A stretch of DNA of 64,000 bases from Escherichia coli. GTDB lineage: Bacteria > Pseudomonadota > Gammaproteobacteria > Enterobacterales > Enterobacteriaceae. Both the position numbers and the translations under genes were made by a program. The notes below the pieces were generated by a model, which was given only the letters and a program-made list of their open reading frames with translations, did no database searches and had not been told where the DNA came from. Shown piece by piece: positions 34,140 to 35,132 of this stretch (the first letter of the stretch is position 1; each line of letters starts with the position of its first letter). Location: the NCBI RefSeq assembly GCF_009931435.1, contig NZ_CP043414.1; one strand, 5' to 3'.

Positions 34140-35132
34140 ATGAGTCAGAATACGCTGAAAGTTCATGATTTAAATGAAGATGCGGAATTTGATGAGAACG
34201 GAGTTGAGGTTTTTGACGAAAAGGCCTTAGTAGAAGAGGAACCCAGTGATAACGATTTGGCCTAAGAGGAACTGTTATCGCAAGGGGCCACACAGCGTGT
34301 GTTGGACGCGACTCAGCTTTACCTTGGTGAGATTGGTTATTCACCACTGTTAACGGCCGAAGAAGAAGTTTATTTTGCGCGTCGCGCACTGCGAGGAGAT
34401 GTTGCCTCCCGCCGCCGGATGATCGAGAGTAACTTGCGTCTGGTGGTAAAAATTGCCCGCCGTTATGGCAATCGTGGTCTGGCTTTGCTGGATCTTATCG
34501 AAGAGGGCAACCTGGGGCTGATCCGCGCGGTAGAGAAGTTTGACCCGGAACGTGGTTTCCGCTTCTCAACATACGCAACCTGGTGGATTCGCCAGACGAT
34601 CGAACGGGCGATTATGAACCAAACCCGTACTATTCGTTTGCCGATTCACATCGTAAAGGAGCTGAACGTTTACCTGCGAACCGCACGTGAGTTGTCCCAT
34701 AAGCTGGACCACGAACCAAGTGCGGAAGAGATCGCAGAGCAGCTGGATAAGCCAGTTGATGACGTCAGCCGTATGCTTCGTCTTAACGAGCGCATTACCT
34801 CGGTAGACACCCCGCTGGGTGGAGATTCCGAAAAAGCGTTGCTGGACATCCTGGCCGATGAAAAAGAAAACGGCCCGGAAGATACCACGCAAGATGACGA
34901 TATGAAACAAAGCATCGTCAAATGGCTGTTCGAACTGAACGCCAAACAGCGTGAAGTGCTGGCACGTCGATTCGGTTTGCTGGGGTACGAAGCGGCAACA
35001 CTGGAAGATGTAGGTCGTGAAATTGGCCTCACCCGTGAACGTGTTCGCCAGATTCAGGTTGAAGGCCTGCGCCGTTTGCGCGAAATCCTGCAAACGCAGG
35101 GGCTGAATATCGAAGCGCTGTTCCGCGAATAA
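34140..35132 (+). pseudogene. rpoS: rpoS (RNA polymerase sigma-S) interrupted by an in-frame TAA at codon 42
   Basis: ATG at 34140 with the canonical [41 protein letters not shown] reads straight into TAA at 34263-34265 where E. coli RpoS has GAA. The same frame then continues as full-length RpoS to 35132; the ORF track only begins at GTG 34299 for this reason. Confidence 0.8.
34299..35132 (+). CDS. rpoS: Possible N-terminally truncated RpoS by reinitiation at GTG codon 54 (277 aa)
   Basis: Longest in-frame ORF downstream of the premature stop, covering sigma regions 2-4. Whether it is translated cannot be judged from sequence. Confidence 0.3.

Follow-up and report, generated by a model that had tools for sequence, protein, structure and literature searches.

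The gene rpoS encodes the general stress sigma factor sigma-S, a group 2 member of the sigma-70 family. When sigma-S is lost, there is less competition for core RNA polymerase and nutrients are scavenged better, at the cost of stress resistance; such loss is selected in nutrient-limited niches and during laboratory storage. Mutants in rpoS resist acid, oxidative, and osmotic stress less well, differ in biofilm formation and in the expression of virulence genes, and grow better on poor carbon sources. It has been reported that rpoS-defective strains make up 20-30% of isolates in some collections (PMC3074542), and loss of the gene has been described as a trade of stress protection for growth and nutrient scavenging (PMC7527412, PMC10401003). 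Laboratory storage and handling are given as a major source of rpoS mutations (Bleibtreu et al. 2014, as cited in PMC7527412 and PMC10401003).

The closest described systems are rpoS alleles with an early stop. The codon-33 amber allele of K-12 (rpoSAm) is credited with a partially active sigma-S without residues 1-53, which is made from an internal initiation region (Subbarayan and Sarkar 2004 and Rajkumari and Gowrishankar 2002, both as cited in PMC2763269). On blots of ECOR strains, truncated RpoS was detected in the frameshift strain ECOR54, and no RpoS was detected in the strains with stops at codons 11 and 26 (PMC3074542). By our computation the ECOR54 frameshift terminates at codon 37. 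A stop at codon 42, produced by G124T (E42 stop), has been published for rpoS of ECOR59 (Ferenci et al. 2011, BMC Microbiol 11:62, Table 1; PMC3074542). ECOR59 is the sole strain with a codon-42 stop that was blotted; it showed no RpoS, and since it is also frameshifted after S186 it is uninformative on reinitiation (PMC3074542).

In the window (the whole 64-kb stretch of DNA that was analysed), rpoS starts with an ATG at 34140, and codons 1-41 are identical to those of the canonical E33 RpoS (WP_000081550.1). Codon 42, GAA (Glu42) in the closest relatives, is converted to TAA by G124T (rpoS numbering), a G:C to T:A transversion that leaves T at 34263 (Table 1). The sequence-only reading had described a TAA at codon 42 (34263-34265) behind an intact start and 41 codons, with the remainder of the gene in frame. 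Sequence comparison agrees on both points: the frame after the stop is open, with no further stop before the natural rpoS TAA (35130-35132). The same reading had proposed a comparison of rpoS across related genomes, and the closest relatives were found to have GAA at codon 42. Relative to WP_000081550.1, the G to T change at 34263 is the only non-synonymous difference of the window gene. Relative to K-12 rpoS there are 18 differences besides G124T, all of them synonymous except the common Q33E, and the translation of the gene shares 99.4% identity with K-12 RpoS across 330 codons; an uninterrupted frame of 330 codons is precluded by the TAA at codon 42. The complete genome nearest to the rpoS region, MFDS1022581 (99.8% over 1161 nt), differs from the window across this distance only at 34263, where it has G, and at one synonymous site. 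The rpoS background of the window, with GAA at codon 42, is also present in L001, L002, and L017. This, together with the absence of other damage in rpoS, indicates a mutation that is evolutionarily recent and confined to the strain or clone, in a gene otherwise undecayed. The gene order truD-surE-pcm-nlpD-rpoS-(MarR, decarboxylase B, C, D)-ygbN...mutS is the same as in related genomes.

Table 1. Features at and around rpoS in the window (coordinates are window positions), followed by crude counts of public assembly blocks for stops at individual rpoS codons, placed relative to GTG54.
Feature	Position	Strand	Remark
nlpD, intact, 379 aa	32938..34077	+	Full-length tblastn match to K-12 NlpD, 98.2%
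rpoS codons 1-41 and premature ochre stop	34140..34265	+	Encodes a 41-residue, 4.6-kDa acidic peptide
Predicted 9-bp mRNA hairpin (rpoS nt 107-142)	34246..34281	+	MFE fold of nt 105-200
TAA at codon 42	34263..34265	+	GAA in relatives; next base G; base-by-base comparison with L001-L003, K-12, L017
SD-like AAGGGG of internal (secondary) initiation region	34282..34287	+	About 10-11 nt 5' of GTG54
277-codon ORF, GTG codon 54 to natural rpoS stop	34299..35132	+	Candidate sigma-S without residues 1-53
Intrinsic terminator of rpoS, intact	35146..35179	+	15-bp stem, then T-run
Stop at codon 33 (K-12 amber lineage)	upstream of GTG54		2,780 blocks
Stop at codon 42	upstream of GTG54		128 blocks
Stop at codon 43	upstream of GTG54		195 blocks
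Stop at codon 44	upstream of GTG54		96 blocks
Stop at codon 48	upstream of GTG54		199 blocks
Stop at codon 59	downstream of GTG54		228 blocks
Stop at codon 64	downstream of GTG54		191 blocks
Stop at codon 75	downstream of GTG54		91 blocks

The stop differs from the nearest relatives by a single base, and a sequencing or assembly error, with GAA as the true codon 42 and an intact rpoS, has to be considered. We regard such an error as very improbable. The lesion is a substitution and not a homopolymer indel. When the K-12 genes of the homologous region (about 55) were translated and matched to the 64-kb window, rpoS alone showed a stop or frameshift, the apparent exceptions among shared genes being ygbK, which is shorter in K-12 itself, and the cas genes, which are of the other E. 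coli type I-E variant. The same base is found in L008, a Logan assembly of run ERR3469340, within an otherwise identical 6.1-kb stretch (0 mismatches to the window over 6,126 nt, T at 34263 included), and this assembly, which may share its isolate or even its reads with the source of the window, is not a proven independent confirmation. Many further assemblies show the identical change, as does a sequence published in the Sanger era. We conclude, with a probability of roughly 0.88, that the window carries a genuine, recent, strain-specific nonsense mutation that abolishes full-length sigma-S, and that this is one of the recurrent loss-of-function or attenuation alleles of rpoS, which form a well-known class.

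The same base change was found in other strains. In AR_0019 (NZ_CP024889.1, locus AM346_RS02940) rpoS carries G124T and is labelled by RefSeq as a pseudogene ("internal stop"); by the same convention the window rpoS would be classed as a pseudogene. AR_0019 was the only one of 5,426 complete RefSeq E. coli genomes in which G124T was detected with a 46-nt query, designed so that every 28-mer seed includes the T; this count is a lower bound, as genomes with T124 plus another SNP within about 20 nt are missed (for example the C123T background of L010). In a public assembly index, the 41-residue peptide of the codon-42 allele was found in 128 blocks. Ten loci with G124T were fetched, and they represent 8 distinct backgrounds of rpoS, with two different gene contexts downstream. 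One of them, L010 (Logan ERR435519 contig 40, rpoS at 3001-3993), has G124T with the adjacent C123T and 29 differences from K-12. With its strongly divergent background, L010 represents yet another independent origin, and the lineage may be an Escherichia other than E. coli.

The alleles of ECOR59 and AR_0019 share the base change, the codon, and the E33 form with the window and differ from it in background. The rpoS gene of ECOR59 has T163C, T339C, T357G, C405T, and C732T in addition to the frameshift after S186, whereas the window gene has no second lesion. Identity of the window strain with ECOR59 was considered and rejected, as the pattern at synonymous sites differs and the frameshift after S186 is absent. 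The rpoS gene of AR_0019 is K-12-like, with C97G only, and the window differs from it at 17 other positions. The three backgrounds are different, and the origins of G124T in them are therefore independent. Judging by the backgrounds compared, G124T has evidently arisen many times independently. The window allele thus has both marks of a recurrent loss-of-function allele, independent origins and no further decay of the gene. The codon-42 allele is already known, and there is nothing unusual about it; the window adds one more ordinary instance to an rpoS polymorphism that is thoroughly documented.

A total of 101 rpoS codons are one step from a stop. We compared codon 42 with others of this set by counting the blocks of public assemblies that index the peptide expected from each one-step stop codon (Table 1); these counts are crude, since a block does not stand for an independent event and the calling of short ORFs is less reliable. 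Two possibilities were rejected on this comparison. Codon 42 is not a mutational hotspot, as similar counts were obtained for codons 43, 44, 48, 59, 64, and 75, and stops are not enriched upstream of GTG54, as codons 42-48 and codons 59-75 have about equal counts. Each one-step rpoS codon seems to be hit at a similar rate, which is expected from loss-of-function selection acting on a large mutational target. The distribution argues that the common selective target would be the loss of sigma-S and not the making of a truncated form.

The possible output of the allele depends on the region behind the stop. The sequence-only reading had pointed to a GTG at codon 54 (34299), and the ORF list does show a 277-aa frame from there; its estimate of roughly 31 kDa for the truncated product is close to the computed mass of 32.0 kDa. 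GTG54 is the first in-frame start after the TAA and lies 33 nt from it. The 277-aa part alone was recognized by two curated NCBIfam equivalog models for RpoS, NF004207 (552.9 bits, cut-off 394, profile positions 55-329) and TIGR02394 (477.6 bits, cut-off 378.7). It keeps regions 1.2, 2, 3, and 4, and the identical L008 product has Pfam r1_2, r2, r3, and r4 matches. The 53 N-terminal residues that would be lost include 17 acidic and 3 basic ones. An in-frame upstream ATG at 34104 (53-aa ORF) was also considered as a start in use and was rejected, as its product matches no gene on record.

The sequence-only reading had drawn a parallel with internal reinitiation in the codon-33 amber allele of K-12, and this parallel has a basis in the literature, where the reinitiation work is cited (PMC2763269). 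As in rpoSAm, an early nonsense codon precedes the same GTG54, the downstream ORF is intact, and an SD-like element is found in the same place. The two alleles differ in detail: rpoSAm has TAG at codon 33, 60 nt from GTG54, and the SD AGGGAG, whereas the window has TAA at codon 42, 33 nt from GTG54, and the SD AAGGGG. The altered SD is the result of two synonymous changes, G144A and A147G, and its predicted pairing is only slightly weaker. The predicted duplex with the 3' end of 16S rRNA is -6.8 kcal/mol for AAGGGG, compared with -7.4 kcal/mol for AGGGAG of K-12 and -6.5 kcal/mol for the primary rpoS SD. In the predicted fold the mean unpaired probability of AAGGGG is 0.81, and GTG54 is mostly base-paired (unpaired probability 0.09, compared with 0.12 in K-12). 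The stop codon is situated in the apical part of the predicted hairpin, the 3' end of which abuts the internal SD, and the same hairpin is predicted in K-12. Because the hairpin holds the stop and ends just before the SD, a terminating ribosome would, according to this fold, have opened it. The sequence features associated with reinitiation are thus all present: the stop lies before codon 54, GTG54 and its frame are intact, and the SD is retained and predicted to be accessible.

Based on these features the following mechanism is proposed. Ribosomes would start at the normal rpoS ATG and terminate after 41 codons; termination at codon 42 would leave the internal site (SD 34282-34287, GTG54 34299) unoccluded, and some of the ribosomes would reinitiate at GTG54 and produce a sigma-S of 277 residues, without residues 1-53. 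Such a product would correspond to the partially active protein described for the codon-33 amber of K-12. The ECOR blots can be read as a rough distance rule, in which codon 42 would be nearer to the internal site than codon 37. From the analogy with K-12 and from the sequence, a truncated sigma-S is probably made at a low level and partly active.

It is also possible, and we give this less credence, that the allele is a complete null, in which the downstream mRNA is degraded or prematurely terminated, no functional truncated sigma-S is made, and the strain behaves like an rpoS deletion. The lack of detectable RpoS in the ECOR strains with stops at codons 11 and 26 is in agreement with a null, as is its lack in ECOR59 with the same stop, a case confounded by the second frameshift (PMC3074542). 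GTG54 is predicted to be largely paired, and RefSeq treats the codon-42 allele as a pseudogene. Stops past codon 54, which are necessarily nulls, are equally frequent, so that selection appears not to need residual activity. Against a null, truncated protein is obtained from the codon-33 stop of the K-12 amber and also from the codon-37 stop of ECOR54, and codon 42 is just 33 nt from GTG54, with the SD kept at -6.8 kcal/mol. Low-level synthesis of truncated sigma-S is favoured over a null because the SD is retained, the stop is close to GTG54, and the conserved regions are kept. We infer that the strain is RpoS-attenuated rather than fully null.

A stronger version of the truncated-product reading was considered as well. 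The codon-42 ochre could be a tuned allele: as it would stop ribosomes within the hairpin next to the internal SD and just 33 nt before GTG54, it could bring about more efficient reinitiation than the codon-33 amber, and thereby a substantial amount of a sigma-S without the 53 acidic N-terminal residues and with an altered promoter preference. If true, it would represent a selectable intermediate on the stress-versus-nutrition trade-off and not a simple gene loss. We consider such tuning unlikely, and the comparison of nonsense-codon frequencies gives it no support.

Full-length sigma-S could still be made if the stop were read through, either by an ochre suppressor tRNA encoded elsewhere or by programmed recoding. 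This was considered because supE is often present in K-12 laboratory strains that have the codon-33 amber; no support for it was found. The ochre stop of the window, unlike the amber of rpoSAm, is not suppressible by supE-type amber suppressors. A search of the 64-kb window for tRNA genes, and thus for a suppressor tRNA, found none. UAA is the most efficient terminator in E. coli; it does not encode selenocysteine and is not known to be recoded, and natural isolates rarely carry ochre suppressors, which are costly. The stop in question is UAA and not UGA or UAG, and none of the close relatives has it, nor was it detected in 5,425 of the 5,426 complete genomes, which also speaks against recoding. 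Readthrough is, in our view, the least probable of the explanations considered, and the preferred reading remains a stop that abolishes full-length sigma-S, with some truncated product.

The allele fits the general polymorphism of rpoS (SPANC trade-off, GASP-type selection, storage inactivation). It represents a single-step inactivation of a conserved gene with nothing to distinguish it and, like that polymorphism, is recurrent across lineages at low frequency in each. The codon-42 lesion may be a product of storage and not of nature, and phenotypes measured on this strain may therefore be unrepresentative of its lineage. Users should treat the strain as RpoS-deficient or attenuated.

The immediate surroundings of rpoS are conserved. 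The nlpD gene, which in K-12 harbours the main promoter of rpoS together with most of its long 5' leader, is intact, and only 8 positions differ from K-12 in the 650 nt 5' of the rpoS ATG. Between rpoS and ygbN (35253-38060) the window has genes for a MarR-family regulator and hydroxyarylic acid decarboxylase B, C, and D. This arrangement is seen in many non-K-12 strains, and all of its genes are intact in the window; the gene for decarboxylase subunit C is frameshifted in AR_0019. Further towards mutS, a 287-aa ORF with a signal-peptide-like N-terminus and Sel1/TPR-type repeats was identified between pphB and mutS (44842-45705, minus strand). Neither K-12 nor the best-matching complete genomes have this ORF, and it accounts for the approximately 5% left uncovered in a 22-kb comparison, in which the best complete RefSeq E. 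coli genome was 98.9% identical to the window. A shorter Sel1 ORF of 173 aa was found at the same place in L017. The 287-aa ORF is another variable cassette of the mutS-rpoS region.

Other parts of the window also differ from K-12. At 62890-64000 the ascGFB operon, which follows hycI in K-12, is absent, and a hypothetical gene and a HigB-family toxin gene are found instead. This segment is 100% identical to strain 2020CK-00188, the rpoS region of which is only 99.4% identical to the window, so that the window looks mosaic. A type I-E CRISPR-Cas system of a non-K-12 variant occupies 14310-24020; its Cas3 and Cascade proteins are about 20-35% identical to those of K-12, and Cas1/Cas2 are 84-86% identical. 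The CRISPR array (22925-24020) has about 18 repeats, GTGTTCCCCGCGCCAGCGGGGATAAACCG. Between cysH and cas3, at the position of K-12 sokX, a full-length match to the sok antitoxin RNA was detected (13778-13934, plus strand; RF01794, 103 bits, gathering score 59), and a hok/sok-type locus may be intact at this site.
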